From sequence record PZ564402.1: DNA of 59,352 nucleotides; one strand, given 5' to 3'. Shown here piece by piece: positions 4,252 to 59,352 of this stretch; the stretch's first letter is position 1, and every line of letters starts with the position of its first letter. A program made the position numbers and the translations under genes. The DNA is from a phage. The notes beneath the pieces are model-generated. The model did no database searches. It was not told the DNA's origin and saw only the letters and a list, made by a program, of their open reading frames with translations.

Positions 4252-4264
4252 TTTCTACTAAAAA

Positions 4265-4293
4265 GTAAGGCCGGATTTCCCGGCCTTTTTTAT
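4265..4293. terminator. bidirectional rho-independent terminator (GGCCGG-ATTTCC-CGGCC flanked by A5 and T6)
   Basis: Perfect hairpin between convergent genes 3925-4251 (+) and 4299-6881 (-). Confidence 0.7.
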
Positions 4294-4298
4294 GTCTG

Positions 4299-7237: not shown

Positions 7238-7316
7238 TTAGTCTGGTACCGCAACCATCTTACGTCCGGAATACAAGGCTTTGAGGTACCCAATCAAAAA
7301 ATTTCGAAAAAAGTGT

Positions 7317-7346
7317 TTGACAGTTATTCGGCGTTTGGGCCATACT
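7317..7346 (+). promoter_or_regulatory. putative sigma70 promoter (-35 TTGACA, 18-nt spacer, -10 CATACT) with upstream A-tracts
   Basis: Consensus -35 in divergent intergenic region upstream of 7399. Confidence 0.4.
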
Positions 7347-10260: not shown

Positions 10261-12300
10261 GTGACCGATTGCATTAATCTTGACTATGAATCCAGAAGCC
10301 GGGTGAACCTTAAAACGAACGGCTTCGACCGTTATTCGAATGACGAATCGACGAAAGTGCTGATGGGCGCGTGGTCGATCAACGGCGGCGCGGTGCAGCA
10401 CGTAGACCTTCATCGCGGCAAAAAGTTGCCCGGCGAACTGCGTGAAGCGCTGGAAGACCCGGACGTGGAGAAGTGGGCCTTTAACGCTCAGTTCGAACGC
10501 GTGATAACCCGCCGGGTGCTCGGCATTAAGACGCCGTACAAAGCGTGGCGCTGTACGATGGCGATGGCGTATATGCTTGGCTTCGCGGGCGACCTGCTGT
10601 CGGTCGGAACACAATTGGGATTGCCGGAAGACAAACTGAAAGACCCGGAAGGCAAGCGCCTGATCGACCTGTTCAGCAAGCCGCAGCGCGTCACGAAGAA
10701 AAACCCATTTGAGTGGCGCAACGAAGCGACCGACCCGGAAGACTGGTGGCACTTCTGCCGATACAACGTGCGAGACGTTGAAACCGAACTGGCGATTAAA
10801 GCGCGCCTGATGCGGTACCCGATTCTGGACGCCGAGTGGGATATGTACGCGCTGGATCAGTTCATCAACGACACTGGCGTGATGATTGACCGCGAATTCG
10901 CGTACTCGGCGCTGGCACTCGCAGAAGCGCGCAAACCGCAGATTATCGAAGAAATGGCCGACATTACTGGCCTGAATAATCCAAACTCCCCGGCGCAGTT
11001 AACACCGTGGCTCAAAGAGCGCGGCTATCCGTTCAGTGACCTCCGCAGCGACACCGTCAACAAAGTTATCCGTGAAGCCGATGAAAACGGCGTTGACCCG
11101 GACGCGATCCGCGTGCTGCGGATGCGACTGAACAGCGCGAAAAACTCCCTGTCCAAATACCAGACCATGATTGACGCGGCTGGCGAGGATGGCCGTTTTC
11201 GCTTCTCGCTGCAATTTGCCGGGGCGAGTCGTACGAACCGTTGGGCTGGCCGTCGAATCCAGACCCAAAACCTGCCGAGAACGCCGAAGCTGATTGAGGA
11301 CGTGACCGACCTGTCCATCGTCAACAAGATGATCCACCAGCGTGACCTTGATGCGCTGACGCTGTATGTGGGCGAGCCGATGGACGCGCTGGTGGGCTGC
11401 ATCCGCTCCGCCTTCATCCCGACGCCGGGCTACAAGTTTATCGTTGCCGACCTGTCTTCCATCGAATCCGTGGTTATCGGTTGGCTGACGAACTGCAAAT
11501 GGTTCATGGATACGCTGGCGGCCAAGCACGACCTTTACCGTTCATTCGCGGCCCACTGGCTGCACCTGCCGTACGAAGAAACGAAACCGCACCGCTCGAA
11601 AGCCAAACCTGCAACCCTCGGCGCGGGCTATCGCCTCGGCGGCGGCCACATGGATGACAATGGCAAGAAGACCGGGCTGTGGGGTTACGCTGAAAACATG
11701 GGCGTACACATGACGCAGAAAGAGGCAGAAGAGTCGGTACAGGCGTTCCGCGACCTTTGCCCGGAAATCGTTCAGGCATGGTATGGCCTCGAAAACGCGG
11801 TGTTCAAGGTTATCCGCACCCGTCAGGCCGTCGTGTGGGGCTGTCTGATTATCGAATACACAAAACCATTCCTGACCATCCGTCTGCCGTCTGGACGCAA
11901 AATGTATTACTTCCGCCCGCGTCTGGTCGAGCGCCAGATGACGGTTCAGAAGGGGCCGAAGAAAGGCGAGAAGTACACAAAGACCAACTTCCAGTACGAA
12001 GGCAAGGTGGAGGGCAGTGGCACCAAGTGGGGCAAGATCTACAGCCACGGCGGTAAGCTGGTGGAAAACATCGTTCAGGCACTGGCGCGCGACGTGCTCG
12101 CCGAAGGTCTGAAAAAGGCGCACCGCATGGGCTTCCGCATCGTCATGCACATCCACGATGAAATCGTAACCGAAGTGCCAGAAGACAGCCCGCTGACAGT
12201 GGACGACCTGATCTCCTGCATGGTGGCCGAACTGCCGTGGGCCGAAGGTCTACCGCTTGGCGCTGCCGGGTGGGAAGGATATTTCTACCGTAAGGATTAA
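10261..12300 (+). CDS. family A DNA polymerase with 3'-5' exonuclease domain (GTG start)
   Basis: Exo I DxE (LDYESRS), polymerase motifs RRIQTQNLPR, KPATLGAGY, HIHDEIV; AGGAG RBS 7 nt before GTG; ATG at 10228 rejected as it sits in the terminator hairpin. Confidence 0.85.
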   Translation: MTDCINLDYESRSRVNLKTNGFDRYSNDESTKVLMGAWSINGGAVQHVDLHRGKKLPGELREALEDPDVEKWAFNAQFERVITRRVLGIKTPYKAWRCTMAMAYMLGFAGDLLSVGTQLGLPEDKLKDPEGKRLIDLFSKPQRVTKKNPFEWRNEATDPEDWWHFCRYNVRDVETELAIKARLMRYPILDAEWDMYALDQFINDTGVMIDREFAYSALALAEARKPQIIEEMADITGLNNPNSPAQLTPWLKERGYPFSDLRSDTVNKVIREADENGVDPDAIRVLRMRLNSAKNSLSKYQTMIDAAGEDGRFRFSLQFAGASRTNRWAGRRIQTQNLPRTPKLIEDVTDLSIVNKMIHQRDLDALTLYVGEPMDALVGCIRSAFIPTPGYKFIVADLSSIESVVIGWLTNCKWFMDTLAAKHDLYRSFAAHWLHLPYEETKPHRSKAKPATLGAGYRLGGGHMDDNGKKTGLWGYAENMGVHMTQKEAEESVQAFRDLCPEIVQAWYGLENAVFKVIRTRQAVVWGCLIIEYTKPFLTIRLPSGRKMYYFRPRLVERQMTVQKGPKKGEKYTKTNFQYEGKVEGSGTKWGKIYSHGGKLVENIVQALARDVLAEGLKKAHRMGFRIVMHIHDEIVTEVPEDSPLTVDDLISCMVAELPWAEGLPLGAAGWEGYFYRKD

Positions 12301-12589: not shown

Positions 12590-14111
12590 AGCGCTCGCGT
12601 ATTGCCTGCGGACGGTTAAACTGAACCGCAGCGACATGCACGACTATCAGGACGAAGGCGTCCAGTTCATCAAAGACCATCCGTACTGCGGCATGTTCGT
12701 AGACCTCGGCTTGGGTAAGACTGTCATGACCGGGACGGCCATGCTAGACCTGATCGCGGACGGCGAAATCAACAAAGTCCTCGTCGTCGCGCCGAAGCGA
12801 GTGGCCCGTACCGGGTGGCCGACGGAATTCGACGAGTGGGGCCATCTGTGCTTCTACAAGATGTCGATTATCGCCGGAAACGCCAAAGAGCGCGCAGCGG
12901 CCGCGAGTAAGGACTGCCATTTTTACACGATCAGCGTCGATAACATCGCGTGGCTGTGCGAGCACTTCAAGACGAAATGGCCGTTCGACGCCGTGGTGCT
13001 GGACGAGTCGAGCATGTTCAAATCCCACACCTCGCAGCGCTTCAAACTGCTGCGCCGGGTGCGGAAGTACATCAAACGGATCGTCGAGTTGACGGCCACG
13101 CCTGCGGCCGAAGGGTACATGGGTATCTTCTCGCAAATTTACCTGCTGGACGAAGGCGAGCGCTTTGGCTCCACCATCGGCGGTTATCAGGACAACTACT
13201 TCACGCAGAACCGCTACAACTTCAAATGGAAACTTCGCCCCGGTGCGGAAGACGAGATTATTCGGAAGATTTCTGATATATGTTTAGTCATGAAAGCGGA
13301 AGACTACCTTGACATGCACGAACCGAATTTCGTTCCTGTCCCGGTCGAGTTAGACGGGGAGACGGCCGAGCGGTACCGCATGATGGAGGAAGAGAGCCTC
13401 GTCGAGATTATGCCGGACGATTTCGATGAACATCTGGATGACCCAATCGTGATCGAAGCGGAGCAGGCCGCGTCTTTGCAGTCGAAGCTATTGCAGATGT
13501 GCTCAGGCTTCATCTACGACACGAAAATCGTTGGCATAACGCAAGACGACAAGGTCATTAAGCAGAAGGACACGTACAGGCTGCACGACCTGAAATTCGA
13601 TGCACTGGAAGAACTGCTGGAAACCACGCTGGCCGATAAAAACGTGCTGATCGCCTATCACTTCAAGCCGACCCTCGAACGACTGAAAGAGCGGTTTAAA
13701 GATCTGGTGGTCATGGATGATGACGGTAAGTGCATCAAGAAGTGGAACGCCGGAAAGATTCGACTGCTGGCCGCGCACCCTCAGTCAGCGGGACACGGTT
13801 TAAACCTCCAGCATGGCGGCCACGTCATCGTCTACATCGACAATCCGTGGTCACTCGAACGCTTCCTGCAATTCAATGGCCGATTGCACCGTCAGGGGCA
13901 GAAGTACCCGGTTACGATCTACCAGTTCAAAGCCATGCTGCGAACACCGAACGGGCTTCTGGCCGAGACGGCGGACGACGTAGTCATACAGGCGCTGGTC
14001 GAAAAGGAAGACGTGCAGGACGCGTTCTTCGAACTGCTCGAACGTATCAAAGGGCGCATCAAACGCCGCAAGAAATCGAAAAATAAAGGGGTATGGGATG
14101 ACGAAGAGTAA
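12552..14111 (+). CDS. SNF2/SF2 family helicase (start uncertain: TTG 12552 or ATG 12636)
   Basis: Q-motif HDYQDEGV, Walker A GLGKT, DExx-like VVLDES, helicase C motifs; C-terminus VWDDEE. Confidence 0.75.
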   Translation: MQTLKTTLSPLSRALAYCLRTVKLNRSDMHDYQDEGVQFIKDHPYCGMFVDLGLGKTVMTGTAMLDLIADGEINKVLVVAPKRVARTGWPTEFDEWGHLCFYKMSIIAGNAKERAAAASKDCHFYTISVDNIAWLCEHFKTKWPFDAVVLDESSMFKSHTSQRFKLLRRVRKYIKRIVELTATPAAEGYMGIFSQIYLLDEGERFGSTIGGYQDNYFTQNRYNFKWKLRPGAEDEIIRKISDICLVMKAEDYLDMHEPNFVPVPVELDGETAERYRMMEEESLVEIMPDDFDEHLDDPIVIEAEQAASLQSKLLQMCSGFIYDTKIVGITQDDKVIKQKDTYRLHDLKFDALEELLETTLADKNVLIAYHFKPTLERLKERFKDLVVMDDDGKCIKKWNAGKIRLLAAHPQSAGHGLNLQHGGHVIVYIDNPWSLERFLQFNGRLHRQGQKYPVTIYQFKAMLRTPNGLLAETADDVVIQALVEKEDVQDAFFELLERIKGRIKRRKKSKNKGVWDDEE

Positions 14112-14667
14112 TGCGCCACTGGCAACCCGGAATCGCCGCTCTAACGCGCCGGACGCCGACACAGAAGCGATGATCTTTCAGGGCTGCAACATCACGCAAC
14201 TGGCAAAACTGTTCCGCATGGAGCGCCGGGACATCACGCCGAAAATCATGGATGTCCCGCCTATCGGCGAGCGTGGCGGGTACCCGATCTACGCGGTTCA
14301 CGAAGTGGCCCCGTACCTCGTTAAGCCGCTGTACGATGTCGAGACGTACCTGCGCCGCATGAATTTCAAGGATCTGCCGAAGGAGTTGTCGAAAGAGTTT
14401 TGGGCCGGGCAGCGTGCAAAGCAGGACTTCGACATCAAAGCTGGCAACCTGTGGGAAACAGAGAAGGTGATCGAGCACTTCGGCGAGGCGGTGAAGGTAC
14501 TGCGCATGTCGATGCTGCTCATTCCCGACACGCTGGCGCGTCAGGCCGGACTCAGCGAGCCGCAACGTCAGGTCATCACGTCATCCATTGACGCCATGCT
14601 GAACGACCTGTCGAGCGCGCTGATCGAGAAGTTCAACGGCGACGAGGTGGACGACGATGAAGTTTAA
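14098..14667 (+). CDS. terminase small subunit, Nu1-like winged-HTH (189 aa)
   Basis: NITQLAKLFRMERRDITPKIMDVPPIGERGGYPIYAVHEV resembles lambda Nu1 N-terminal DNA-binding domain; directly upstream of and overlapping TerL; C-terminus DDDEV. Confidence 0.55.
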   Translation: MTKSNAPLATRNRRSNAPDADTEAMIFQGCNITQLAKLFRMERRDITPKIMDVPPIGERGGYPIYAVHEVAPYLVKPLYDVETYLRRMNFKDLPKELSKEFWAGQRAKQDFDIKAGNLWETEKVIEHFGEAVKVLRMSMLLIPDTLARQAGLSEPQRQVITSSIDAMLNDLSSALIEKFNGDEVDDDEV

Positions 14668-47692: not shown

Positions 47693-47735
47693 GTTGCCCC
47701 CTAAAGTAAAAATCCCCGTTGTTGCCTTCGGGGAT

Positions 47736-47765
47736 AATATAGGTTATACACGCGACGTATGTCAA
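47736..47765 (-). promoter_or_regulatory. early promoter, conserved family (-35 TTGACA, spacer with TACGTCGCGTGTA, -10 TATATT)
   Basis: One of four near-identical minus-strand modules (47.7, 50.2, 53.5, 56.8 kb), each intergenic. Confidence 0.6.
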
Positions 47766-47772
47766 ACAGTTT

Positions 47773-48285
47773 CTAAGACTTTCTTTTCCGGGCGTGCTCC
47801 AGTCGATCACCGTGGCCCTTCTCGACCATGAAATCGCGGGTCTGTTTGTGCAGGTCGGCGATCGTCTCCTTCGTTTTCCGCCAGCGCGCCACTATCCCTT
47901 CGCGCACTTCCCGGTCGCGGAACAGGACGGCCAAGTCCGTCGCGGTGATTTCGTACCCGGCGCACGCGGCCAGCACGCCTTCCTTGAATTCGTAGAACAG
48001 GTGCTGGATCTCCCGGAATTCAGCCTCGGTTACGACCTCGATGTTGACGGTTTTCCCTTCACCGATGTCGTCCTCGGTAAACAGGCACCCGGCTTCGCCC
48101 ACGGCCCGGCCATCGTCCTTCCGGTAGCGCGAGTTGCCGATGATGATCTGCGTCGGCGTGGTGCGCTCTACGCGGCGTTTCACGGCGAACGTTACTTCCG
48201 GGCTGTACCCGATGCGGATGCTGTTACGCTCCAGCGCCATGTCACCCGTTTCGAGGTGTCCAAATCTCAATTTTTTATCGGCCAT
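47773..48285 (-). CDS. hypothetical early protein (170 aa)
   Basis: ORF. Confidence 0.45.
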   Translation of the reverse strand: MADKKLRFGHLETGDMALERNSIRIGYSPEVTFAVKRRVERTTPTQIIIGNSRYRKDDGRAVGEAGCLFTEDDIGEGKTVNIEVVTEAEFREIQHLFYEFKEGVLAACAGYEITATDLAVLFRDREVREGIVARWRKTKETIADLHKQTRDFMVEKGHGDRLEHARKRKS

Positions 48286-48521
48286 TCTTCATATTCTCCC
48301 TTCGGTAATTCGTCAGTCACGTCGCGCGCGGCCCATTGCAGGAACGCTTCGCGGGTACAACTTGGATAGTGTCGGCCAAAGCCTACGACCGGGCCGTCGT
48401 ACTGGATGTGCGTGGCCCCGATGTACAGGATGGTGCGGTCGTTCACCAGTCCGTTTCGGTTCTGCGGCCGTTTTCCGCGATACGTGCGGCCCGCTTTCAG
48501 TTCTAATTCGCTATCGGCCAT
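48267..48521 (-). CDS. hypothetical early protein (84 aa)
   Basis: ORF. Confidence 0.4.
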   Translation of the reverse strand: MADSELELKAGRTYRGKRPQNRNGLVNDRTILYIGATHIQYDGPVVGFGRHYPSCTREAFLQWAARDVTDELPKGEYEEWPIKN

Positions 48522-48726
48522 CGCTGTCCACCTCGACTTCGAATGTGCGCGGAACGGTCATGGTCAGCACGTCATTCTCGGTGAACGGTGACAGCGGTTC
48601 GTCGCCCGGCTGGAAGCGCAGCGTGACGCTGCCGACGTTGTGATACGTGATATAGCGAAGGCGGAACTGCTCGCCAAAGATGGTCGCGAGTACGCCCGGC
48701 TTAACGTCTCCTGCGGCAATTTTCAT
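48511..48726 (-). CDS. hypothetical early protein (71 aa)
   Basis: ORF. Confidence 0.4.
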   Translation of the reverse strand: MKIAAGDVKPGVLATIFGEQFRLRYITYHNVGSVTLRFQPGDEPLSPFTENDVLTMTVPRTFEVEVDSDGR

Positions 48727-49016
48727 GGTAAAAGTCCTTCTGGCAAATTATCTATGTGGATAACAGTCGGGGTGTAGCCTTCCTTTATGATGCGACCTAC
48801 CCATTCAAACTCCGGCGTTTTTTGCAGATAAATCACACGCTGTTCGTCGCGCAATGACAGCGGACACGGCCACTCGCCCATGTTCCCCCGTATGATGTTC
48901 GCACCATAATGCTCCGCGATTGCGATCTGCCCCTTCGGCTCAATCTCTGGCGCGCCTTCGCCATAAACGATCACGATGTCATACACGGTCATAGTCTCCA
49001 GTCTAACGGCTCCCAT
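48723..49016 (-). CDS. hypothetical early protein (97 aa)
   Basis: ORF. Confidence 0.4.
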   Translation of the reverse strand: MGAVRLETMTVYDIVIVYGEGAPEIEPKGQIAIAEHYGANIIRGNMGEWPCPLSLRDEQRVIYLQKTPEFEWVGRIIKEGYTPTVIHIDNLPEGLLP

Positions 49017-49183
49017 TGGCCGTCTCGTTTGATGTAGCAGCCGCTTAACGGGCTGTATTTGGTGGGTAGTTCGGTCTGGACGCTGACGTCGTTACACCCG
49101 ATCGCCGCGCCCACACGGCCAATGACAAACAGCACACCGCAGATAATCAATACAAACAGCGTTAGCGCAGCGATCTTCTTCAT
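48989..49183 (-). CDS. small secreted protein / putative lipoprotein (64 aa)
   Basis: AAAGGGG RBS; N-terminal signal-like MKKIAALTLFVLIICGVLFVIG with Cys residues. Confidence 0.45.
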   Translation of the reverse strand: MKKIAALTLFVLIICGVLFVIGRVGAAIGCNDVSVQTELPTKYSPLSGCYIKRDGQWEPLDWRL

Positions 49184-49193
49184 GGTGGCCCCT

Positions 49194-50168
49194 TTATTCC
49201 TTCGGTGGATTTGATTGGTGGCGATTTAGCCAGATGACAATTCCGGCAGTATAATTGATCACGCCGAGCAACTCCCTAACCCTTTGGTCATGTGTTGGCA
49301 GGTTGACACCCTCGACGACCTTTTTGCATACCTGATACACCAAGCCGAGCGGGCTATTGATCAGGTCAGAAATGGCGTTCATCGGCTGCTGGCTGAACGG
49401 CAGGTCATTCGCGTGGCGCTCGCGTCCTTTACCATACGCGGCTTGTGTCAGCGCATCATGTAGCACTTTGACTAATTCGGAATAATCGTTGCTGTCTTTG
49501 ACGTTCCGGAATTCGTACTGCCATGACCTGGCGGCCGACGGTGCAACGGCTTCCGGCGCGACGAGGGCTTCATCAAGCGGCCATCCCTGCGCGAAGGCGA
49601 ACATGATGTAATTCATCGCGTCTATGTACTGATTCTCTTCGAGACAGCGGCGGATGGCGTCGGAACATTGCTTTGGCCAGTCCGGCTGCATCCATCCCAA
49701 TTCCAGTCCCGGGTTTTTGCGCTCGAACTGAATCAGACGATCCAGCATGTATCCGAAGACCTGTTCGCAGATTTCCGCCGTGGGTTGGCTCAACGCTGGC
49801 CGCTCCAGATGGAATACCGTGACAGTCGGGTCTGTCTTGCCTTTCGGCAGTTTCAGGTATTTCTGTTCGGTATCGAGCAGCGACTGAATCAGGCCAAGAA
49901 CGTGCTCCTTCATGATCAATGGCGTGGCGTATCCGGCTTGGTCTAACCCTAACTGCGCCAGCACGGCCTTGCGGAAATCCTCGGCGTCGTACTGATCCTT
50001 GCTTTTCGGCGAGGATTGCAGGTCATTGATAATCTTCACTGCGTGGTCGCGCATATCGCCGTCGTCCTCGTAGTCAAAACTGTCCATGTTCAGCGCGTTG
50101 AGGATGGCTTCTTCAAACTTCTCGCTGCTGGTCTTTCTCAGACCGCGTTCTTTCTTCACGTCTACCAT
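49194..50168 (-). CDS. hypothetical early protein (324 aa)
   Basis: First ORF downstream of promoter 50208-50236. Confidence 0.5.
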   Translation of the reverse strand: MVDVKKERGLRKTSSEKFEEAILNALNMDSFDYEDDGDMRDHAVKIINDLQSSPKSKDQYDAEDFRKAVLAQLGLDQAGYATPLIMKEHVLGLIQSLLDTEQKYLKLPKGKTDPTVTVFHLERPALSQPTAEICEQVFGYMLDRLIQFERKNPGLELGWMQPDWPKQCSDAIRRCLEENQYIDAMNYIMFAFAQGWPLDEALVAPEAVAPSAARSWQYEFRNVKDSNDYSELVKVLHDALTQAAYGKGRERHANDLPFSQQPMNAISDLINSPLGLVYQVCKKVVEGVNLPTHDQRVRELLGVINYTAGIVIWLNRHQSNPPKE

Positions 50169-50207
50169 AATAAAAAACTCCCGTTGGTGGATTAACCTTC
50201 GGGAGTA

Positions 50208-50236
50208 ATATTAATTACACATGTCGCGTATGTCAA
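50208..50236 (-). promoter_or_regulatory. early promoter, conserved family (-35 TTGACA, -10 TAATAT) followed by leader hairpin + U-tract
   Basis: Conserved module; hairpin CTCCCG...CGGGAG then T6 before RBS. Confidence 0.6.
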
Positions 50237-50245
50237 ACGCTTTCT

Positions 50246-50932
50246 TTAAATCTCGTCCCACATCTTGATCCAGCGGTTCCGGATCTTGGCCGATACGTTA
50301 GCCAGTGGTGCGCCGATTTCCAGTAGCGTTTCACGGTCGATATACTCGTTGGGGTGAATGCGGTCAGTCGCCGGGTCGAAGATGTGGATGGCCGCGCCGA
50401 ACCCGGCCGACGTGATTTCGCTGCTGCCTTCCTTCGGCCGGAACCAGACTGGCGGTTCGAACCCGATGCGCCCTTTGATGAAGATGGTGCGCGTGGCGAT
50501 GGTGTCCGGCCACCAGCTTTCCGACGTCGCGGACTTGGTCAGCCAGATGGTGCCTGCGCCTTTGGCCCGCTCCTCGTCGGCCTTGCGCATGATGTGGGTC
50601 ATCCCTGTCAGGTGTTCTTTCCCGGCGCGCTTCTGGCTGTATGGCGGGTTAGCGTAGGCCCAAACGCGGGTGTTCGAGTCGAACCCGTCGCTGGCGTGGA
50701 TCTCGGCCAGACGCTTCGCCCAATCCTGCCGCAGCGCGTTATCTTCGGCCGTAAAGAAACGCTGGCATTTGGCGTTCTGGCCGTCGGTGAACAGGTCAAG
50801 CACGATTGGCCCGTACAGCTTGTTAATCGCTTGGAACAGCCATTCCGGCGTACGCCATTGGTCGCCGATCAACTTCGGTTCGTGCTCGTCCATGCCTTTC
50901 AGCGCGTTCAGCGCATCAACGTACTGGCTCAT
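50246..50932 (-). CDS. dam: DNA N6-adenine methyltransferase (phage Dam type)
   Basis: Catalytic NPPY motif (AYANPPYSQ) and N-terminal WRTPEWLF typical of phage Dam MTases. Confidence 0.7.
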   Translation of the reverse strand: MSQYVDALNALKGMDEHEPKLIGDQWRTPEWLFQAINKLYGPIVLDLFTDGQNAKCQRFFTAEDNALRQDWAKRLAEIHASDGFDSNTRVWAYANPPYSQKRAGKEHLTGMTHIMRKADEERAKGAGTIWLTKSATSESWWPDTIATRTIFIKGRIGFEPPVWFRPKEGSSEITSAGFGAAIHIFDPATDRIHPNEYIDRETLLEIGAPLANVSAKIRNRWIKMWDEI

Positions 50933-52032
50933 TAAAACGTCTCTCCTTTCAGCAGGTCATCGGCCTCGACGTAGAAGGCTTCGTATTTGTCGGGTGACAT
51001 CGTGTACAGCGGCTGGCCGCCCGTATATTTATGGGTCAGGTCGGTGTACGTGGATGCGCTCATGTCGAGTTGAATACGGTTCGCCATGTCCTTGACCATT
51101 TGCAACGTGACTGACTTCGGTTGTGGTGACAGCAGCAGGTTATCGCACATCGCATGGATGTACGTGACGATCGGTGCTGGCAGGCCCGCCACCAGATTCG
51201 CGTTCAGGCGGTAATGCGGCGTGTCAAGGTACTCGGCGGCATGGTCAGGGTACGCCCGGAAGCCGGACAGGATCACCATGCGGGCCGTGGTCAGGTCGAT
51301 GGCCGCCAGTTCTTCCCACGCAGCGCGGACGGACGCGGACTTCCGGGTGTAGCGTACGTCATTCTGCATCGACTTGATCGTGGCGCGCAGCTTAGTCGTT
51401 TCCCGGTCGTGCTCGGTGTTATCTTCGGCGTGACGGCGGTGGGCCTCGGATAACTGGATTTGCAGACTGGTGACAGCGCTTTCCGCCGTATCGAGACTGC
51501 GGGTCTTGGTATCCAGCGCTTCGCGTAGTGCGGCCAGTTCGCCCGGCGTGATGTTGGCGAGGCGCAGCGGTTCGAAGTCTTTCAGCGTCAGCGGGCCTTT
51601 GCTGGTCATCTGCTCGGTCAGGCGCTGTATGTCCTGCATGGCGAGGCTTCCGGCCAGATCGATGCTGGTGGTGCCTGCAATCTTTGCGTATTTAGCGCTG
51701 GCACGTACCGTTTCGAGGATGGTGCTCAGGATCTGCTGGCACTGCTCGCGCTCCCACTCGGTCACTTCTGCGGCCGTTGGCGTAACCGCCGATGGGCGTT
51801 TAACTCGCGTCCAGTGAATGCGGATTTCCCGGGGCATTGCGTCGCCGTCCACCTCGACTTCATCGACTGACTGGATGTTCGCTTCCGGCGTTCCGCAGTT
51901 ATCGCGAAGGTATTTATGCGCCACGCACAGGATATGATTTGGGGATATGCCGCCTTCCTGCTCGATAGCCATGACGAGGATGTCTTTCAGGCTTTTATCG
52001 TCGGTGATGTATGTGACTTTTTGTTCGCTCAT
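50932..52032 (-). CDS. hypothetical early protein (366 aa)
   Basis: ORF. Confidence 0.5.
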   Translation of the reverse strand: MSEQKVTYITDDKSLKDILVMAIEQEGGISPNHILCVAHKYLRDNCGTPEANIQSVDEVEVDGDAMPREIRIHWTRVKRPSAVTPTAAEVTEWEREQCQQILSTILETVRASAKYAKIAGTTSIDLAGSLAMQDIQRLTEQMTSKGPLTLKDFEPLRLANITPGELAALREALDTKTRSLDTAESAVTSLQIQLSEAHRRHAEDNTEHDRETTKLRATIKSMQNDVRYTRKSASVRAAWEELAAIDLTTARMVILSGFRAYPDHAAEYLDTPHYRLNANLVAGLPAPIVTYIHAMCDNLLLSPQPKSVTLQMVKDMANRIQLDMSASTYTDLTHKYTGGQPLYTMSPDKYEAFYVEADDLLKGETF

Positions 52033-52703
52033 TTGGATGCCTTTAAAATGTTAGAGAATTCAACGATGTTGACAAGGTTATGCTGACGTCCGCTGTTCGA
52101 TCTGGCCCGGCTGGCCGTCTCCATTACCCGGGGATTCATTTCAACGCGCGGCGTGCGCCCGGTACCGTATTGATCCATGCTGCTCATGCGGTCAACGCAG
52201 ATGCTGTACATCTGGCTGGCCGTCATCCAGTTACCCATCGTATTGATGAAAAATTCCATCGCCTGCAATGCGTCGAGCGCGTAGACCATCGTGGCCGCGT
52301 TGTCCGTGTACAGCACGTACGCGCCGACGGACTGCACGACCTTATCAACGCCGCTCATGTACTCGGCGATCCACTCCGGCGGCACTGGAGGAACCGCACG
52401 ACGTTCACCGCTCGCAGGGGTACCGTACGGATAGGCGAAGGCCGGGCTGGCCGAAACGCGACGTCCGGTAGGCGTGGTCGTCACCGTTGCTTTCGGCTCG
52501 TCTTTAGGCAGATTCTGGAGGCAGGCCGGGCCGCCTTGCCAGCGCTTCCAGACCGTTTTCTTCGGCTCGTCGGACTCCGGCGCGGTGCATGGTGGTGGGT
52601 CGATGTCATTCGCGTCCCATGTCTTCTGACAGTCCCGGCAATAGAATTGGTCACTATGCTGCACGACTGATAAGTGGCTTCCGCCAGTGGCTTCGATTCT
52701 CAT
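52029..52703 (-). CDS. hypothetical early protein (start at internal ATG MRIEATGG)
   Basis: GAAGGGGAAG RBS; ATGA overlap with upstream gene stop. Confidence 0.5.
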   Translation of the reverse strand: MRIEATGGSHLSVVQHSDQFYCRDCQKTWDANDIDPPPCTAPESDEPKKTVWKRWQGGPACLQNLPKDEPKATVTTTPTGRRVSASPAFAYPYGTPASGERRAVPPVPPEWIAEYMSGVDKVVQSVGAYVLYTDNAATMVYALDALQAMEFFINTMGNWMTASQMYSICVDRMSSMDQYGTGRTPRVEMNPRVMETASRARSNSGRQHNLVNIVEFSNILKASK

Positions 52704-53446
52704 ATCTCTACTTCCCCTTCGGTTAAAATGCGAAACGCGCCGCCGCCGACTTTCCAGCCCTGCCACACGTCGGCCAGAAGCGCCGCCCGGTACTTCCGGC
52801 GGAACACGTTGTAAATCATGTCCCAATTCTCACTCGGCAGGTCAGACGCGATACCACCGCTCTCCCACGCCCAATCACGCGGCGACTGCGTCAGCCATTT
52901 CAGCGGAGGACGGGGGTAGGTGTACGGATTCGCCAGACCGCAGGCCACCAGCCCGCGTTTAATCCATGCACGTTGCCACCATAAATCGTGAACCGTCTTC
53001 CCGGCGATGAATTCTTCGTCCAGCATCGCGCACAGGATCGTCATGGCGGCCTTTTCTGCGTTCATGGGTACGCCAATGTCGTCCCAATCTTCCAGCGCGG
53101 CCCTGACGCCGTCAGCGCTGCCGTCGTCGTTGCTGGTGGATGAACGGTCATGCAGGATGACGTCGAACACCATGAACGGGAACACGACCTGTTCGCCGTT
53201 CCGCGTGTATTTCGGGTTAGGCTCGCTGAACATAGCCGAGTACAGACGGCGGATGTGGTCTTCGAGATCCGGGACAAACCCGGTAAGTGGTGCGCCGTCG
53301 TCAGCGTTGACCATTTCGAGGTCGGTGCCGTTGGTGCGGATCAGGCAGCGTGGCCCGTATGGCAGGGGGAAAACGTACAGCACTTCTTTCCCGATCAACG
53401 CTTGGTTGAAAGGCACGAATTTCATTACGTGGGTCTTCATCGGCAT
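52700..53446 (-). CDS. hypothetical early protein (248 aa)
   Basis: AAAGGAG RBS; first gene after promoter 53470-53498. Confidence 0.55.
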   Translation of the reverse strand: MPMKTHVMKFVPFNQALIGKEVLYVFPLPYGPRCLIRTNGTDLEMVNADDGAPLTGFVPDLEDHIRRLYSAMFSEPNPKYTRNGEQVVFPFMVFDVILHDRSSTSNDDGSADGVRAALEDWDDIGVPMNAEKAAMTILCAMLDEEFIAGKTVHDLWWQRAWIKRGLVACGLANPYTYPRPPLKWLTQSPRDWAWESGGIASDLPSENWDMIYNVFRRKYRAALLADVWQGWKVGGGAFRILTEGEVEI

Positions 53447-53469
53447 GACTCCTTTGTTATGGTACGGGA

Positions 53470-53498
53470 ATATTAGTCGTACACGCGACGTACGTCAA
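53470..53498 (-). promoter_or_regulatory. early promoter, conserved family (-35 TTGACG, -10 TAATAT)
   Basis: Conserved spacer TACGTCGCGTGTACGAC; intergenic. Confidence 0.6.
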
Positions 53499-53635
53499 TA
53501 ACTTTATTCGAGGCAAAAGAAAGCCCGCGTAAAGGGATTGCGGGCTTTTGGAAGGTGGCATCCGAAGATTACCACTGGCTTAAAGCGGACAACGCAGGAG
53601 CCGATAAGGAAGCACTATGCCGAGTCCGCAGTTAA

Positions 53636-53935
53636 TCATATGTCGGGGTTACTGTAAATAAGATTCCAGTATTTGTACTCCTTCAAGTCCAGTTCAACGA
53701 CACAAGGGTCATCCAGCGCGCTCAGACAGGTGCCATAGTCCTCGACAAAGACGCAGGAGGACTCCGGATGATGCAGCAGGCGCACCCGGCGGTAGTTCAG
53801 GTGCCATTCCGGGCTGAACACATGGTTCTCCGGCTGGCGTATCAGCATGATCTGGCCTGTCGTTCTGACCTGCCAGTATTGGTCTACTTGGGGCGTGGCA
53901 TAGGCTCCCATATTGTTACTCCTTTTTGTCCGCAC
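53636..53935 (-). CDS. hypothetical early protein (99 aa)
   Basis: ORF. Confidence 0.4.
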   Translation of the reverse strand: MRTKRSNNMGAYATPQVDQYWQVRTTGQIMLIRQPENHVFSPEWHLNYRRVRLLHHPESSCVFVEDYGTCLSALDDPCVVELDLKEYKYWNLIYSNPDI

Positions 53936-54149
53936 TATCCCGGTAAACGCGGGTGCCCATCTTCCCGTAGATCTGGTCTTGCAGCGTAAAACGGATGGAC
54001 AGGCGGATGTTAAGCCGATAGCCCATGCGACGCAGATAGCCGAGATCCTGCGGCTTCACGCCCTCGATAAAGAACGACTCGCCGTCCTTCATTCCGAGCA
54101 GAAGTTTTTCGTGAGTTTCACGCACGCTTTTGTCGGTAGTCGCGGCCAT
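53916..54149 (-). CDS. hypothetical early protein (77 aa)
   Basis: ORF. Confidence 0.4.
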   Translation of the reverse strand: MAATTDKSVRETHEKLLLGMKDGESFFIEGVKPQDLGYLRRMGYRLNIRLSIRFTLQDQIYGKMGTRVYRDSADKKE

Positions 54150-54151
54150 TG

Positions 54152-55225
54152 TTAAACCTCGTCGTCGTCTTCGTCGTTCAGCGTTCCGGTGTACTCAACA
54201 ACCTGCCCGGCCTCGTCCAGCACGCTGATCACCGCACGCAGGGACTTATCGAGTTGGAACAGGTTCGCCATCATGGTCAGGAACTGGCCGCCATCGGTGC
54301 CGTAACGTTCGAGCGTGGCGTCGTAGTTCGCATCGACGTCGGCCTCGCCGATATGGATACCGGACAGGATGGCTTTGTCGGACAGGCGGAAGTACACGGT
54401 GTCGATGCCCGGGCATTGCGTATCGACTTCGAGATCCAGTGCGCGGACAGTCCAGTGGCGGGACAGCAGGTCAACCACCGCCTCGTCTTTGAAGATGTCC
54501 GTGTCCTTCATCTTAACGTCGTCACCATCGTCGTGTTTCAGGTGGATAAACGCATCGCCCTTGATGCCGTCCTGCTGGCCGAGAACCGCGCGCTGCATTA
54601 ACTGGCGCAGCTCATACTCGCTCGGCAGGAGGTGTTCGACGGGCCATGTGCCGAGCGCGGTACGGATCAGCGCGCTGCACTCTTCTGCCGTCTTCGCGCT
54701 CGACGTGAACACGTACACGAACGGGGCGGACAGGATGACGTTGACGCGGGACGGGCGGATAGGCGCGTATTTCAGCATTTCCGCTTCCACGTCGTCCTTC
54801 ATCTGCGCCCAATCCTTGCGGTTCGGCTCCCAACCCTCGATCTCTTTCTCCCGCAACGCGGCCATGCGCTTCACGACTTCATTTCGTACGCTGACGCCGG
54901 GCAACACACGTTCGCGCTTTTCGATCTGGAAGACGATGGCGTTTGTCCCGGGGATGGCGAGCGCAAACTTGCTGTCAACCTCTTCGCCGTACGCTGCAAA
55001 GCCCATTGTCTTGTAAGACGCCTCCGGCGGATCTGACACTTCATGCTTTTCGAGTGCATCGCTTAACGCTCCTTTAGCGAAAGACGTCACCGCCTCTTCG
55101 TCAACGTTCGGCAGATTCAGGATCAGGCGGTGCAGCGGCTTGACCTTCTCGTTACCGTCGTTGGCCGCGTCGTACAGCGCGCCGAGGTGCAAGATAATGG
55201 CTTTCTCATAACCCTTGATTTTCAT
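54152..55225 (-). CDS. RdgC-like recombination-associated protein with acidic C-terminal tail
   Basis: Segments VLPGVSVRNEVVKRMAALREKE and AEECSALIRTALGTWPVEHLLP resemble E. coli RdgC as I recall it; ends NDEDDDEV. Confidence 0.5.
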   Translation of the reverse strand: MKIKGYEKAIILHLGALYDAANDGNEKVKPLHRLILNLPNVDEEAVTSFAKGALSDALEKHEVSDPPEASYKTMGFAAYGEEVDSKFALAIPGTNAIVFQIEKRERVLPGVSVRNEVVKRMAALREKEIEGWEPNRKDWAQMKDDVEAEMLKYAPIRPSRVNVILSAPFVYVFTSSAKTAEECSALIRTALGTWPVEHLLPSEYELRQLMQRAVLGQQDGIKGDAFIHLKHDDGDDVKMKDTDIFKDEAVVDLLSRHWTVRALDLEVDTQCPGIDTVYFRLSDKAILSGIHIGEADVDANYDATLERYGTDGGQFLTMMANLFQLDKSLRAVISVLDEAGQVVEYTGTLNDEDDDEV

Positions 55226-55568
55226 GCTCTATGGCTCCTACGTTAATTAAATTGGCTGGTGCTCCGTGGTACATGGATTGCGCTGCATGGAACATCGCGG
55301 CGCGTAGTGCTTCTTTGGCCGCCCGAAGGCCCGCCATTGATTCAGCGTACTGGTCGCTGACCGTGTTATACGCCGCCTCGTCGTTGTCCAGCGTGGCGAG
55401 GTCGAGCATTTTGGTACTATGGGCCTGCACGTCGTCTTCCATGTCCTTGAAAAACGTCTCAAGGGCAGACAGTTTGCAGGTGATTTGGTCTAACCGGACT
55501 TTGCGCAGTTCTTGGTACTGCACGCGAACGAATTCAATGCCTTCCACCAGCCACCTCCACGACGACAT
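55206..55568 (-). CDS. hypothetical early protein (120 aa)
   Basis: ORF. Confidence 0.4.
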   Translation of the reverse strand: MSSWRWLVEGIEFVRVQYQELRKVRLDQITCKLSALETFFKDMEDDVQAHSTKMLDLATLDNDEAAYNTVSDQYAESMAGLRAAKEALRAAMFHAAQSMYHGAPANLINVGAIEHENQGL

Positions 55569-55869
55569 TCTGCACTTCCGGGCATGGCATATTCGTCATG
55601 GCCCAATCCAGAAACTTCACGATGTACATGCGCATGGCCGCACATTCGTCCGCGCCACGGGCCTTGCCGTGCTTCGCGATGGCCGGGTCGCCGGACTGAT
55701 AGAAGGTCACGCGGTGATTCGTGGCAGACGACACCTTGATCCCGGTGTGCGTGGCGTGGATGGTCACGCTGTAGATCCGCTCGATAGCGCGGAACGCCGG
55801 GACGACGTCGATGCGGCCTTTCGGGTGCATGGCGTTGTTCACCATCAACGCGGTATTAGTCGGCTGCAT
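55534..55869 (-). CDS. hypothetical early protein (111 aa)
   Basis: ORF. Confidence 0.4.
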   Translation of the reverse strand: MQPTNTALMVNNAMHPKGRIDVVPAFRAIERIYSVTIHATHTGIKVSSATNHRVTFYQSGDPAIAKHGKARGADECAAMRMYIVKFLDWAMTNMPCPEVQNVVVEVAGGRH

Positions 55870-56296
55870 TCAGCGGTTCCTCTTTCAGACGGTAGGTGAT
55901 GGTGTCCTGGCGAGTCGCGTCGATTTCCAGTTCAGGCATCTGCCCGGTGATCAGGCGGGACGGCGTCAGCACGGCGGTGCGCAGGCCGTTCTCGAACATG
56001 ATGTTGGCCGCCGTGACCAGCGAAATGCTTTCGATATGGTCTTGGGTCTGGTCGAGGCGGCGCTGTAGCAGTTCTACCTTCTCGGCGTTCTCGTCCGGAA
56101 GGTCGAAGGCGGCACGCAGCCCGGCGATCAATGCGATGGCGTCCGCGCGGGTCAGGGGGGTGGCGATCTCGGTGTCACCGTTGTCCTTCTCGATGTAGAT
56201 CTCGCCCTCTTTTTGGCCGGGCTTCTTATAGATAAAGGCCGTACGGGCAATGTCGCGTACCGGACTCAGTTCAATAGGGTGGTGCGTTGTTTTCAT
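55856..56296 (-). CDS. hypothetical early protein (146 aa)
   Basis: ORF. Confidence 0.45.
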   Translation of the reverse strand: MKTTHHPIELSPVRDIARTAFIYKKPGQKEGEIYIEKDNGDTEIATPLTRADAIALIAGLRAAFDLPDENAEKVELLQRRLDQTQDHIESISLVTAANIMFENGLRTAVLTPSRLITGQMPELEIDATRQDTITYRLKEEPLNAAD

Positions 56297-56367
56297 CGGT
56301 GTGCGTCCTATAGGGTGTCAGGTCAAAAGGGTGGTACGCCATTTTTCAGGCGTGCCGTCCTACGTTT

Positions 56368-56739
56368 TTAAACTTCGTCGTCGTCCGCGACGTCGGTGGC
56401 CGTACAGGTTACGACGGCCTGAATGAACATGCGGCCAGACGGGTAAGTCACCAGCGCGGACTCCATGCTGAACCGTTGGCCGTGGTGCTTCATGGCATTC
56501 CGGATGGAGGAATTTAGGCTGGCCCGCATCTTCGCTTTGAGGGCATTGGCCTCGTCCTGTACCTGCGAAAGCGTACGGTCAAGCGGGAGTTCTTGGGACA
56601 GGGTGTACACGCCACCGACTTCCAGCGCAATGAGGTTCCCCACGACGCTGTACACGCGCACGCGTGACGGCAGTTCAACATCCGGCTCGGTCGTCATCAT
56701 TGCGCCAGTCAGTTCGGCCGGGCTTAGTTCTTTGCTCAT
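56368..56739 (-). CDS. hypothetical early protein with acidic C-terminus (123 aa)
   Basis: GGAG RBS; first gene after promoter 56782-56810; ends DVADDDEV. Confidence 0.5.
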   Translation of the reverse strand: MSKELSPAELTGAMMTTEPDVELPSRVRVYSVVGNLIALEVGGVYTLSQELPLDRTLSQVQDEANALKAKMRASLNSSIRNAMKHHGQRFSMESALVTYPSGRMFIQAVVTCTATDVADDDEV

Positions 56740-56781
56740 TGGGATGGCTCCAGTTGGTTCGTTAAATGTTACGTTCGGAGA

Positions 56782-56810
56782 ACAATAGTTCTACACGCGA
56801 CGTATGTCAA
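56782..56810 (-). promoter_or_regulatory. early promoter, conserved family (-35 TTGACA, -10 TATTGT)
   Basis: Conserved spacer TACGTCGCGTGTAGAAC; drives leftward early operon. Confidence 0.55.
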
Positions 56811-56871
56811 TTCATTTCATCCGGCAATTATGATGACCGGGCGAAACTCCAGTTTAGTTTCTGTCGGCGAG

Positions 56872-57100
56872 GTTTCCGAAGTAAGACCCGGCGTCGCGGG
56901 GCCGAGCGGGGGCAGGCTGACTTTTTCGAGTAAGCCCGGAACGCCAACCCTTCCGTCGGCCAGCTTTTTCAAGTAAGCCGGACAGCCGGGTGAAATTGGC
57001 CCGACGCTGGTGGATAAAAACCGCAACCGGGTAGGTTTTTGAAGTAAGGACTGGCGCAGTCGTTCAAAAATTTTGGGCAGGCTAGGTTTTTCAAGTAAGC
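56872..57100. repeat. five iteron-like direct repeats, consensus (G)GTTTTTCAAGTAAGCCCGG
   Basis: Copies near 56872, 56921, 56964, 57033, 57083 in the 600-bp noncoding gap between divergent early promoters. Confidence 0.65.
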
Positions 57101-57405
57101 CCGTCGGAAATTTTTGTAGAGAATGTCAGGCCCGGCGCGGCCCGGCGTCATGGTGTGCAGCCGTTTTTGGTGGGATTTTGTACAAATCGTTATAAATCAA
57201 TGACTTAACCTATGCGCCGATCGACCTGTTTTGGCCCGGTTATCGTGGATTTTTCGTATAGAATTCAAGGGTTTAGGACGTGGCGCCGCGTGCCGTTTGG
57301 CGGTGTGCCGGGGCGGGGGCCGTGGGGCGCGGCGGTGCAATGCGGCCCGGCGTGGCGGTCGGTGGCGCTTTTATGTGCGGTTACTCAAATAATATGAAAA
57401 AAGAT

Positions 57406-57434
57406 TTGACGCACGCCGCGTATATCAATTACAT
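57406..57434 (+). promoter_or_regulatory. sigma70-like promoter (-35 TTGACG, 17-nt spacer, -10 TTACAT) with UUCG leader hairpin
   Basis: 47-bp near-identical copy of promoter at 831; upstream A-tract. Confidence 0.6.
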
Positions 57435-57499
57435 TTGAATTCCCTTCGGGGGACGGGGCAAAAAGTCCCGGCGATAAACCAACTTAATGAGGTGTCACG

Positions 57500-57757
57500 A
57501 TGGAAAAGGTATATAACGCGATCAAGGGTCAAACGTTGCAACATTGGTTAACGATTGCCATCAAGCGCGACGAAAACGGCGGCGCTACGGTCGAACTACG
57601 CAGCACGATCCACGTTAACAAGGTTAGCCCGGTGTCGTTTTCATGGGGTAAGGAATATAGCGACGCGGATATTCTGAATGATGCCGATTTATTACGCGTC
57701 ATTTATCAGAAGTATGGACACGAAATTTTCACCGCTGATTTTACACGTAACATTTAA
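57500..57757 (+). CDS. hypothetical early protein (85 aa)
   Basis: First ORF after promoter 57406. Confidence 0.5.
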   Translation: MEKVYNAIKGQTLQHWLTIAIKRDENGGATVELRSTIHVNKVSPVSFSWGKEYSDADILNDADLLRVIYQKYGHEIFTADFTRNI

Positions 57758-57775
57758 TTTAATAAGGGGATAACT

Positions 57776-58315
57776 ATGCAAACTATTAACACTAAATATC
57801 ACAACGGGAAAATCGTTGCGACTTCTTGGAATGGCTGGACGCGTTCAGAATATGACGCGGCGTTATCCAGTGAGCAAAACCACCGCGCCGCCGCTGAAAA
57901 GCTAATCATTAAACTGAATAAAGGCCGCTCGATGGAATGGGGGATCGTGAATAGTGCGCCATCCGTGCCGGGCGTGCGTGGTAAGGATAACGGCTGGACG
58001 TTTATTATTGGTTATGTGCCAGAAGTCGCGCCCGCGCATATGTCAATCACTGTTAAGTTCTGCCCGGCAACAAATAAAGGCCCGGCATACATGCGCGCTT
58101 ATTCGTGGTTAGTGCCGCGCGGGATCAAGGTTAACTATTCGCCACGCGTCGCCGACGGGTCAGATATTCAGGCAAACGCACGTTATGCGGCGGGCATCAT
58201 GTTAGACCGCATTAATGAGATATGCCGCGAAGGTGGCGATCTCTTAGGCTGGAAAATTGCGGACTACGTGCAATTGTACGACGGCGATCGCCTGTTCACT
58301 CTGAAATCTAATTAA
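57776..58315 (+). CDS. hypothetical early protein (179 aa)
   Basis: AAGGGGA RBS. Confidence 0.5.
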   Translation: MQTINTKYHNGKIVATSWNGWTRSEYDAALSSEQNHRAAAEKLIIKLNKGRSMEWGIVNSAPSVPGVRGKDNGWTFIIGYVPEVAPAHMSITVKFCPATNKGPAYMRAYSWLVPRGIKVNYSPRVADGSDIQANARYAAGIMLDRINEICREGGDLLGWKIADYVQLYDGDRLFTLKSN

Positions 58316-58329
58316 TCCGGGGGCGCGTC

Positions 58330-58530
58330 ATGTTAATGGCTATTATCTTGATCGGTTATTCAATAATTGCGGCTGTTATATATCGTGACGCGCGGGCGGT
58401 GTGGCGTCGCTGTAAGGTTGAGCGCCGTTATTCTTTCGGGCGTAAAACGTTTTATTTACGCGAGCGTAAAACAGGCCGCTTGATCGGCTGTTCAAATAAT
58501 TTTTTCACTATCCTGTTACAAGGGGCTTAA
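58330..58530 (+). CDS. small membrane protein (66 aa)
   Basis: N-terminal TMD MLMAIILIGYSIIAAVIY. Confidence 0.4.
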   Translation: MLMAIILIGYSIIAAVIYRDARAVWRRCKVERRYSFGRKTFYLRERKTGRLIGCSNNFFTILLQGA

Positions 58531-58532
58531 TC

Positions 58533-59156
58533 ATGCGTACTATTTCACTTTATACTTTTAACGAACTGTCCGACGTCGCGAAAGCAAAAGCGATCGAAAA
58601 TTACCGCCAATATAAGAGCGGCGATCAATTCGACTTTTCTGAATATAAAGAAAGCCTTCGTGAATTTTGTGATGATCTATGCGTCGAGGTGCGCGACTGG
58701 TCTTATGGTTTAGGGGGTTGCGATGTAAGCTATGAAATTAATCATAGTTCAGATGTGGAAGATTTATCCGGCGTGCGTGCGTACAAGTGGATTATTAATA
58801 ATGTTACGGCGTTTAATACGCGTCGCCGCGTTTATCGTGAATACCGTGAAGTCAATAACCACGGTTTTAAACAAAAGGCGTCCTTCGTTAAATGGGTTAG
58901 CGGGGTGTTCAACGCGTCCGACGATTGCCCGTATACAGGCGTTTGCTGTGACGAATCATTATTGAAGCCTTTCCGTGACTTCCTGAAAAAGCCAGATGAC
59001 CGCACGATCGCGGAACTGATACGCGAAGCGATAGACGGGTATTGTTCGGATATGCTCGACGAACTGGAAAGCCGCGAAAGCGACGAATATTTACGGGATG
59101 ATCTGGAAAACGGCGACACGCCTGAATTTTTTGAAAACGGCGCTATTTATAACTAA
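58533..59156 (+). CDS. hypothetical early protein (207 aa)
   Basis: ORF coupled to upstream gene. Confidence 0.5.
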   Translation: MRTISLYTFNELSDVAKAKAIENYRQYKSGDQFDFSEYKESLREFCDDLCVEVRDWSYGLGGCDVSYEINHSSDVEDLSGVRAYKWIINNVTAFNTRRRVYREYREVNNHGFKQKASFVKWVSGVFNASDDCPYTGVCCDESLLKPFRDFLKKPDDRTIAELIREAIDGYCSDMLDELESRESDEYLRDDLENGDTPEFFENGAIYN

Positions 59157-59167
59157 CCGGGGGATCT

Positions 59168-59352
59168 ATGGGTCATATGTATGGCGTTATCTTGTCAAAT
59201 GGTACGCATTGCGACACGTCAACCACGGAAAAGGGCGCGAAAAATTACGCCACGCGCCACGGTTACAAGGAAGTAAGCCGCCGCCTGAATTGCGGCTATA
59301 GCGTCGAAATCGTAGCACATCGCGCCGGGTCGAAATGGATCGCCGGGCCTGC
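59168..59352 (+). CDS. hypothetical protein, truncated by window end (would terminate at position 18 if the sequence is circular)
   Basis: ATG at 59168 with GGGGGA RBS; frame stays open to the window end and continues in frame into positions 1-18 (TAA). Confidence 0.35.
   Translation, partial: MGHMYGVILSNGTHCDTSTTEKGAKNYATRHGYKEVSRRLNCGYSVEIVAHRAGSKWIAGP

Follow-up and report, generated by a model that had tools for sequence, protein, structure and literature searches.

Six predicted promoters serve the right arm of PZ564402.1

The phage sequence PZ564402.1 (59,352 nucleotides; the whole stretch is referred to below as the window) carries a family of six promoters with a conserved sequence in the spacer between their -35 and -10 boxes. 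Over long stretches the window shares 93-95% identity with more than 100 Chi-like phages of Salmonella and Escherichia (Chivirus, Casjensviridae), and it represents a circularly permuted Chivirus genome. The Chi-like phage is described as lytic in the literature. The genome end lies within the window, at a match to the published 12-base cohesive end GGTGCGCAGAGC (PMC4342425, PMC5374247):

3364-3375, plus strand, cohesive end (cos) GGTGCGCAGAGC

Rightward of cos are a helix-turn-helix (HTH) gene and then, on the minus strand, the primase gene and a small regulator gene. Two divergent promoters follow at about 7.2-7.35 kb, and from there genes for replication, packaging, virion and lysis functions occupy the plus strand as far as about 45 kb. 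In the right arm the genes are small; one set is read leftward (56.7 to 45.1 kb), the other rightward, starting at 57.5 kb and crossing the window junction to end at 2.8 kb. The sequence-only reading had proposed four minus-strand and two plus-strand promoter modules, and all six were found in the window at the places it had given:

831-860, plus strand, promoter P831, TTGACG-18-TATATT, dyad at 834-850 (GCACG CCG CGTAT), predicted to drive genes 922-2823
57406-57435, plus strand, promoter P57406, TTGACG-18-TACATT, dyad at 57409-57425, predicted to drive 57500-59301 and, across the window junction, 30-796
56782-56810, minus strand, promoter P56810, TTGACA-17-TATTGT, dyad at 56791-56807 (ATACG TCG CGTGT), predicted to drive the genes from 56739 down to 53636
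53469-53498, minus strand, promoter P53498, TTGACG-17/18-TAATAT, dyad at 53479-53495, predicted to drive the genes from 53446 down to 50246
50207-50236, minus strand, promoter P50236, TTGACA-17/18-TAATAT/AATATT, dyad at 50217-50233 with the central triplet inverted (ATACG CGA CATGT)
47736-47765, minus strand, promoter P47765, TTGACA-18-TATATT, dyad at 47746-47762, predicted to drive the genes from 47692 down to 45121

The common string of these sigma70-type promoters is TTGACR-YACGYCGCGTRT. They have 9-11 of 12 matches to the two hexamers at 17-18 bp spacing, and all six lie in gaps between open reading frames (ORFs). Each stands upstream of a gene block and points into it, and together they serve the whole right arm. 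The number of promoter-like matches overall did not exceed that in shuffled sequence (13 versus 9.7, and 4 versus 7.4). Those with an exact TTGACR box in the scanned regions were the six modules and two further promoters, 7228(-) and 7317(+), which served as controls:

7200-7346, divergent, control promoters P7228(-) and P7317(+), TTGACA box, 17-18 bp spacing

The -35 boxes of the family are exact TTGACR and the -10 boxes match at 4-5 of 6 positions, which, with the 17-18 bp spacing, indicates that no activator is needed. A-rich tracts, which vary among the six, lie upstream of the promoters. The flanks are otherwise unrelated, save for a similarity extending over 77 nt between P831 and P57406. 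In 90 records the P47765 module has at least 99% identity, and it remains alignable to Klebsiella phages. A sigma28-type reading of AAAGTT...GCCGCGTA at P831 and P53498 was rejected, since the tract upstream differs from one family promoter to another and resembles a generic A-rich UP-like tract.

The conserved spacer is a dyad in fixed register with the -35 box

A scan of the window with the 18-mer TTGACRYACGYCGCGTRT, allowing up to two mismatches, gave 8 matches against 0.10 expected. The spacer 12-mer YACGYCGYGTRT occurred exactly 10 times (0.22 expected), a number reached by none of 100 shuffles. Every one of these ten copies lies in an inter-ORF gap and five are in family promoters. The sixth promoter, P50236, has a variant site. 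The string that the sequence-only reading had given for all modules, at 17-18 bp from the -10 box, describes every module except that at 50.2 kb, whose spacer is TTGACATACGCGACATGTGT. This spacer has CATGT as its right half and an inverted central triplet, and it fits the motif only as a dyad.

Read as a dyad of about 13-17 bp, AYACG-N3-CGTRT, the spacer accommodates all six promoters. Measured from the first T of the -35 box, its centre is at 12 bp (about -25) and its extent is from positions 4/6 to 18/20. The dyad overlaps core promoter elements, its left half running over the end of TTGACA. In five other Chivirus genomes the changes within the dyad were confined to the centre or to degenerate Y/R positions. 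A function at the RNA level was rejected, since the window had no match in Rfam and the RNA fold of the dyad is worth only -1.1 kcal/mol. Near-matches to the motif also occur within coding sequence, at 49434-49446 and 52144-52155; they are kept in close relatives, perhaps by coding constraint.

The spacers of P7228 and P7317 contain no dyad: their fraction of complementary pairs was 0.29, a value reached by 2623 of 5000 shuffles. Moreover, these spacers differ freely between Chi, JC01, PSTCR9 and XAP3, which indicates that spacer conservation is not a general property of promoters in Chi-like phages.

The position of the dyad bears on the kind of protein that might use it. MerR-family sites are centred at about -25, and both this agreement and the strictly fixed register with the -35 box would suit an activator or MerR-like remodeller required for the promoters to fire. 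However, the spacers measure 17-18 bp and not the over-long 19-20 bp of MerR-type promoters, the exact -35 and good -10 boxes speak against such a need, and copies of the dyad exist without any promoter boxes (see below). An activator is hence hardly probable.

Symmetry and register are retained in eight genera with changing half-sites

The spacers were compared among eight genera, Chivirus and seven relatives whose intergenic DNA is unalignable with that of the window. Symmetry was measured as the fraction of complementary pairs for each possible centre, and spacer shuffles (5000 trials) served as the null. The promoter spacers of these phages read as follows:

Chi (Chivirus): dyad AYACG-N3-CGTRT
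Klebsiella phage Seifer (Yonseivirus): TTGACACACG-nnn-CGTGTGCA; dyad ACACG-N3-CGTGTGCA
Providencia phage PSTCR9 (Redjacvirus): TTGACAYACG-nnn-CGTATG; dyad AYACG-N3-CGTATG
XAP3 (Zhonglingvirus): TTGACACACN-nnn-NGTRT; dyad ACACN-N3-NGTRT
Cronobacter phage JC01 (Jacunavirus): TTGACACAC-N5-GTGTRT; dyad ACAC-N5-GTGT
Aeromonas phage A18P4 (Sharonstreetvirus): TTGACACC-N7-GGTGTC; dyad GACACC-N7-GGTGTC
Achromobacter phage phiAxp-2 (Fengtaivirus): TTGACTT-N9-AAGTC; dyad GACTT-N9-AAGTC, with TTGACT as the -35 box
Proteus phage Saba (Cenphatecvirus): TTGACTACC..GGGGTC; dyad GACTACC..GGGGTC

Symmetry peaked at centre 12.0 in all eight genera, with values of 0.60-0.82 in seven and 0.49 in Saba. The observed symmetry was attained by none of the 5000 shuffles in seven genera and by 3 of 5000 for Saba. 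The half-sites are specific to the genus and the central bases are free, whereas symmetry and register are retained. Where the -35 box has changed from TTGACA to TTGACT, the pair A6:T18 has become T6:A18, a compensatory change in the opposite arm. A simple scan of Pseudomonas phage Itty13 (not of the Casjensviridae) and Pectobacterium phage MA12 found no comparable promoter family. Searches of IMG/VR returned 4 and 14 loci, most of which end at cos.

These comparisons also address the idea that no protein is involved, the conservation being due to recent duplication of a promoter cassette or to an intrinsic property of the spacer DNA (alternating purine-pyrimidine, Z-DNA-prone, supercoil-sensitive). 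The spacers of Chi, Seifer and JC01 are indeed rich in alternating CA/CG/TG steps, and the 77-nt similarity of P831 and P57406 is what duplication would leave. However, the other flanks of the six promoters are unrelated, eight genera with unalignable intergenic DNA all retain the dyad, the control spacers drift freely, and the weak RNA fold speaks against it too. The spacers of phiAxp-2 and Saba are symmetric although they do not alternate, and for these two the Z-DNA or alternating-sequence version fails. Taken together, an explanation without any factor is very unlikely.

The changing half-sites further bear on the origin of the factor. An ACAC..GTGT core is common to the phages of enterobacterial hosts (Chi, Seifer, JC01, XAP3 and PSTCR9), as might be expected if a host transcription factor or nucleoid protein bound the dyad and allowed the phage to sense the state of its host. 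In the Achromobacter, Aeromonas and Proteus phages, however, the half-sites shift with compensating changes in both arms, which fits a co-evolving phage protein better, and we know of no enterobacterial factor with such a site. Because the half-sites change with the phage genus, a host factor appears unlikely, and on these sequence patterns a phage-encoded one is favoured.

Further copies of the dyad form an array beside cos

The sequence-only reading had spoken of a family of six. Six is the number of promoters; the copies of the motif are more numerous, and the additional ones listed here (the four array cores and the site at 3892-3904) lack a usable -10 box:

2928-3126, array of four dyad sites without promoter boxes, cores at 2932-2944, 2991-3003, 3039-3051 and 3112-3124
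2869-2891, degenerate site TTGACATATTCCCCATGTATCAA, just before the terminator of the rightward operon
3892-3904, perfect dyad ATACGCGACGTGT, 21 bp upstream of an HTH_37 gene, with no recognisable -10 box on either strand

The array follows the terminator of the rightward operon (2889-2917) and lies 240-430 bp to the left of cos. Three of its four sites are ACGCACGCCGCGTATATCA, identical at 19 of 19 positions to the spacers of P831 and P57406, and the fourth is a variant. The copies retain module positions 4-22 and have neither the TTG of the -35 box nor any -10 box. They are spaced by 59, 48 and 73 bp with no AT-rich block alongside; such a block lies across cos at 3640-3760. Replication-origin iterons, for comparison, are direct repeats accompanied by an AT-rich block next to them and an initiator gene. 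Equivalent arrays of 3-4 sites, each with the sites of its own genus, were found at about 240-490 bp from cos in PSTCR9, XAP3 and JC01. The array of Seifer is a variant, composed of TTGCACTC units that match Seifer's own rightward promoters. The orientation of the units differs between genera. The array region is present in 98 records, and in those sampled it is unannotated, save for one with two hypothetical proteins.

The surroundings of cos contain other repeated or conserved elements. The box AAAAGGTACTT (3330-3340) stands 34 bp to the left of the cos end; Chi, Seifer, PSTCR9, XAP3 and JC01 all retain it, and it is likely a cos recognition element. To the right of cos, at 3590-3870, TTGTAAC(C)/GGTTACAA repeats occur together with the AT-rich block, and JC01 has GTGTGTC/ACACAC repeats at the equivalent position.

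The proximity of the array to cos raises the question of whether the packaging machinery, namely the small terminase subunit (encoded in the window at 14098-14667) or another cos protein, binds the sites, in which case late binding would link packaging with early shut-off. The location of the arrays in Chi, PSTCR9, XAP3 and JC01 and the identity of the array units to the rightward promoter spacers are in line with this. Sites of lambda-type terminases, however, are asymmetric and close to the nick, and AAAAGGTACTT and the TTGTAAC repeats on the other side are better candidates for cos recognition. As an account of all the sites, binding by the packaging machinery is considered quite unlikely; for the array it is conceivable.

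Candidate proteins for binding the dyad

Two genes for HTH proteins of the Xre type were considered:

6881-7159, minus strand, 93-residue Xre-like HTH protein (phrog_7401), counterpart of Chi gene 3, co-transcribed with the primase gene; the leading but weak candidate
3925-4251, plus strand, HTH_37/Xre-type gene in a variable cassette

The product of 6881-7159 was found in 142 phage records, which include phages of Klebsiella, Providencia, Yersinia and Cronobacter (JC01) as well as XAP3. Its structure model contains a confident HTH (predicted local distance difference test score, pLDDT, of 92), and by fold it comes closest to Xre/Cro-type regulators such as C.BclI and C.AhdI. The putative recognition helix in this protein family reads Y-x-T-L-L-W where the operator cores are ACG..CGT and Y-H-T-A-L-K in JC01, whose operator lacks CG. 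This contrast in sequence is consistent with the protein being the operator binder, on very few contrasts. That the 6881-7159 product binds the dyad is a tentative identification, which we regard as possible but somewhat doubtful. Autoregulation of this gene was rejected, since its promoter P7228 lacks a dyad conserved across genera.

The HTH_37 gene was rejected as the general factor despite the perfect site upstream of it. Only 21 phage records contain the gene; in SeF2 it is missing together with the site, and the Seifer copy has a half-site only. Pfam scans of 30 early or neighbouring ORFs revealed no further credible DNA-binding domain.

The left-end module that contains both genes and the primase gene (3925-7159) has 76-97% protein identity to that of Klebsiella phage Seifer, a member of another genus, whereas the early-arm proteins that match Seifer are only about 37-72% identical. 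This contrast points to a recent mosaic exchange.

Sequences adjoining the promoters

Two of the leftward promoters are directly followed by terminator-like structures:

47707-47735, minus strand, terminator-like hairpin with U-run, -11 kcal/mol, beginning directly after the -10 box of P47765
50171-50206, minus strand, terminator-like hairpin with U-run, -14.2 kcal/mol, beginning directly after the -10 box of P50236

Similar GC hairpins follow promoters in the comparison loci L006 (near 3141), L008 (near 5775 and 2846) and L009 (near 15806 and 16403). Because the GC hairpin begins 1-4 nt past the -10 box, the start site is expected within its 5' arm. Such hairpins would terminate read-through from the upstream operon, and transcripts initiated at the promoter itself would carry an incomplete hairpin. 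Transcripts from both rightward promoters are predicted to carry a CCCTTCGGGG(G) tetraloop hairpin at their 5' ends (861-905 and 57436-57480, plus strand).

Between the divergent promoters P56810 and P57406 lies a non-coding gap of about 600 bp (56820-57400), a possible origin or control region, with two copies of AGGTTTTTSAAGTAAG and a very GC-rich run at 57290-57370. The equivalent promoter pair of Seifer has a similar gap of about 640 bp, and that of JC01 one of about 550 bp. In A18P4 (locus L010, near 5943 and at 10756-10787), promoters of opposite direction carry a different, longer palindrome, TTGACGATAAG..CTTATGATCAA, which suggests a second operator type in Sharonstreetvirus.

The conserved spacer as a probable shared operator of the early arm

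A dyad with constrained half-sites, a free centre, co-variation with genus and copies independent of promoters is characteristic of operators bound by dimeric DNA-binding proteins. The sequence-only reading had suggested that the spacer may be bound by a phage or host factor coordinating early transcription, and a protein-binding site is supported at the level of sequence by the symmetry of the dyad, the change of half-sites in fixed register, the non-promoter copies and the dyad-less 7228(-) and 7317(+). Since related genera have an equivalent site at the identical position, a docking site for a phage repressor is most likely. The dyad covers the -35 end and half of the spacer of promoters whose boxes and A-rich upstream tracts are already good, so the simplest way for the protein to act would be to repress by keeping sigma70 out. 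On the whole, we consider it fairly probable that the conserved spacer is an operator at which a dimeric repressor encoded by the phage silences the entire early arm.

In such a scheme, the near-consensus promoters would fire at full strength on host RNA polymerase before the protein builds up. A phage-encoded dimeric protein would then occupy the dyad and, seated on the -35 and spacer DNA, would compete with sigma70. All six early units, which span the right arm (about 45.1-59.3 kb and 0-2.9 kb), would be shut off jointly, so that a pulse of early expression from all of them would be followed by common silencing. The most widespread candidate for this protein is the 6881-7159 product, which would be expressed with the primase from a promoter without the dyad. 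The same protein may also fill the four sites of the array, which separates the rightward operon from cos, and there it might block transcription into cos, form a reservoir of protein or provide a link to packaging.

A wider version of this scheme assigns two jobs to one phage protein and one type of site, namely the shut-off of early promoters and, through the array, the marking or insulation of the cos genome end, which is probably packaged last and injected first, so that the end of early transcription would be coupled to cos function. Its operator would be locked to the -35 box and co-evolve with it (TTGACA/..TGT versus TTGACT/..AGT). This version is rather unlikely.

Several observations weigh against a phage repressor acting on a shared operator. 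The Chi dyad is imperfect, with a complementary-pair fraction of 0.60, and the loose dyad pattern AYACGNNNCGTRT, allowing up to one mismatch, is not enriched genome-wide (12 matches against 8.4 expected); the significance of the motif rests on its specific sequence, its fixed register and the comparison across genera. The promoters of one genome are non-independent samples, and the argument is carried by repetition across eight differing genera. As to the candidate protein, its fold similarity is weak (Foldseek E values of 0.056 or worse, Xre-type matches at 0.06-0.3), no Pfam match lies above threshold and sequence searches yield marginal HTH matches only. A homologue of 6881-7159 was not detected in the dyad-bearing Aeromonas, Achromobacter and Proteus phages, for which divergence or incomplete sampling may account. 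Finally, the Seifer homologue is 97% identical (tblastn), yet the outer operator bases of Seifer differ from those of the window.

Relation to known repressor-operator systems

The Cro and CI proteins of lambda (at OR and OL) and Arc and Mnt of P22 are small dimeric repressors bound to dyads that overlap the -35 and -10 boxes of early promoters, from which RNA polymerase is excluded. The sites in the window resemble these operators in that dyads lie over the core of early promoters. They differ in that one site type in one exact register is used at six dispersed promoters of a phage described as lytic, with no tandem OR1-3 clusters and no divergent repressor gene, and with a half-site that shares bases of the -35 box.

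In phages L5/L1 with their stoperators and in phiC31 with its conserved inverted repeats, one repressor acts on many copies in the early region, some of which are in promoters. The L5/L1 sites are asymmetric and orientation-dependent within transcription units, and the phages are temperate. A study of mycobacteriophage L1 speaks of multiple operators (PMC1934351). As in these phages, many dispersed copies occur here in and outside promoters. Unlike the stoperators, the sites of the window are symmetric and their non-promoter copies cluster at one genome end; they are not the asymmetric, orientation-dependent 13-bp sites in transcribed regions that define the L5 type.

The plasmids RK2 (KorA/KorB) and R388 have identical palindromic operators in many promoters, which allows a burst of expression upon entry into a naive cell and then shut-down. 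KorB also binds non-promoter sites, and KorA sits over the -10 box. A common palindromic operator embedded in many promoters is likewise found here, although in a phage and at another position in the promoter, and the likeness is one of design. Restriction-modification systems have controller (C) proteins, whose C-boxes are GACT..AGTC dyads at the -35 box. The model of the candidate protein is nearest to small Xre-type regulators, C proteins among them, and the GACTT..AAGTC of phiAxp-2 resembles a C-box; in contrast, the dyad is spaced differently, the matches in fold are weak and there is no restriction-modification context.

The kind of system proposed here, a repressor-operator regulon, is thus already known from lambda-type phages, L5, phiC31 and plasmid RK2. 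What would be new is its occurrence in a family regarded as lytic, the strict register that ties the site to the -35 box, the family-wide conservation and an array next to cos. In the literature searched, including the genome papers of Chi-like phages, neither transcript data nor any description of these promoters, the dyad, the array or regulators of timing was found, and temporal gene control in the Casjensviridae appears to be undescribed.

Promoter-operator pairs with genus-specific partners could serve as orthogonal repressible promoters. For the phages themselves, the sequence comparison offers a map of six early units that may be co-regulated, with a defined operator, a shortlist of candidate regulators and a conserved, unannotated array at the genome end. 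Because the design is present in at least eight genera whose hosts range from Salmonella to Achromobacter, it is probably an old core feature of the Casjensviridae.

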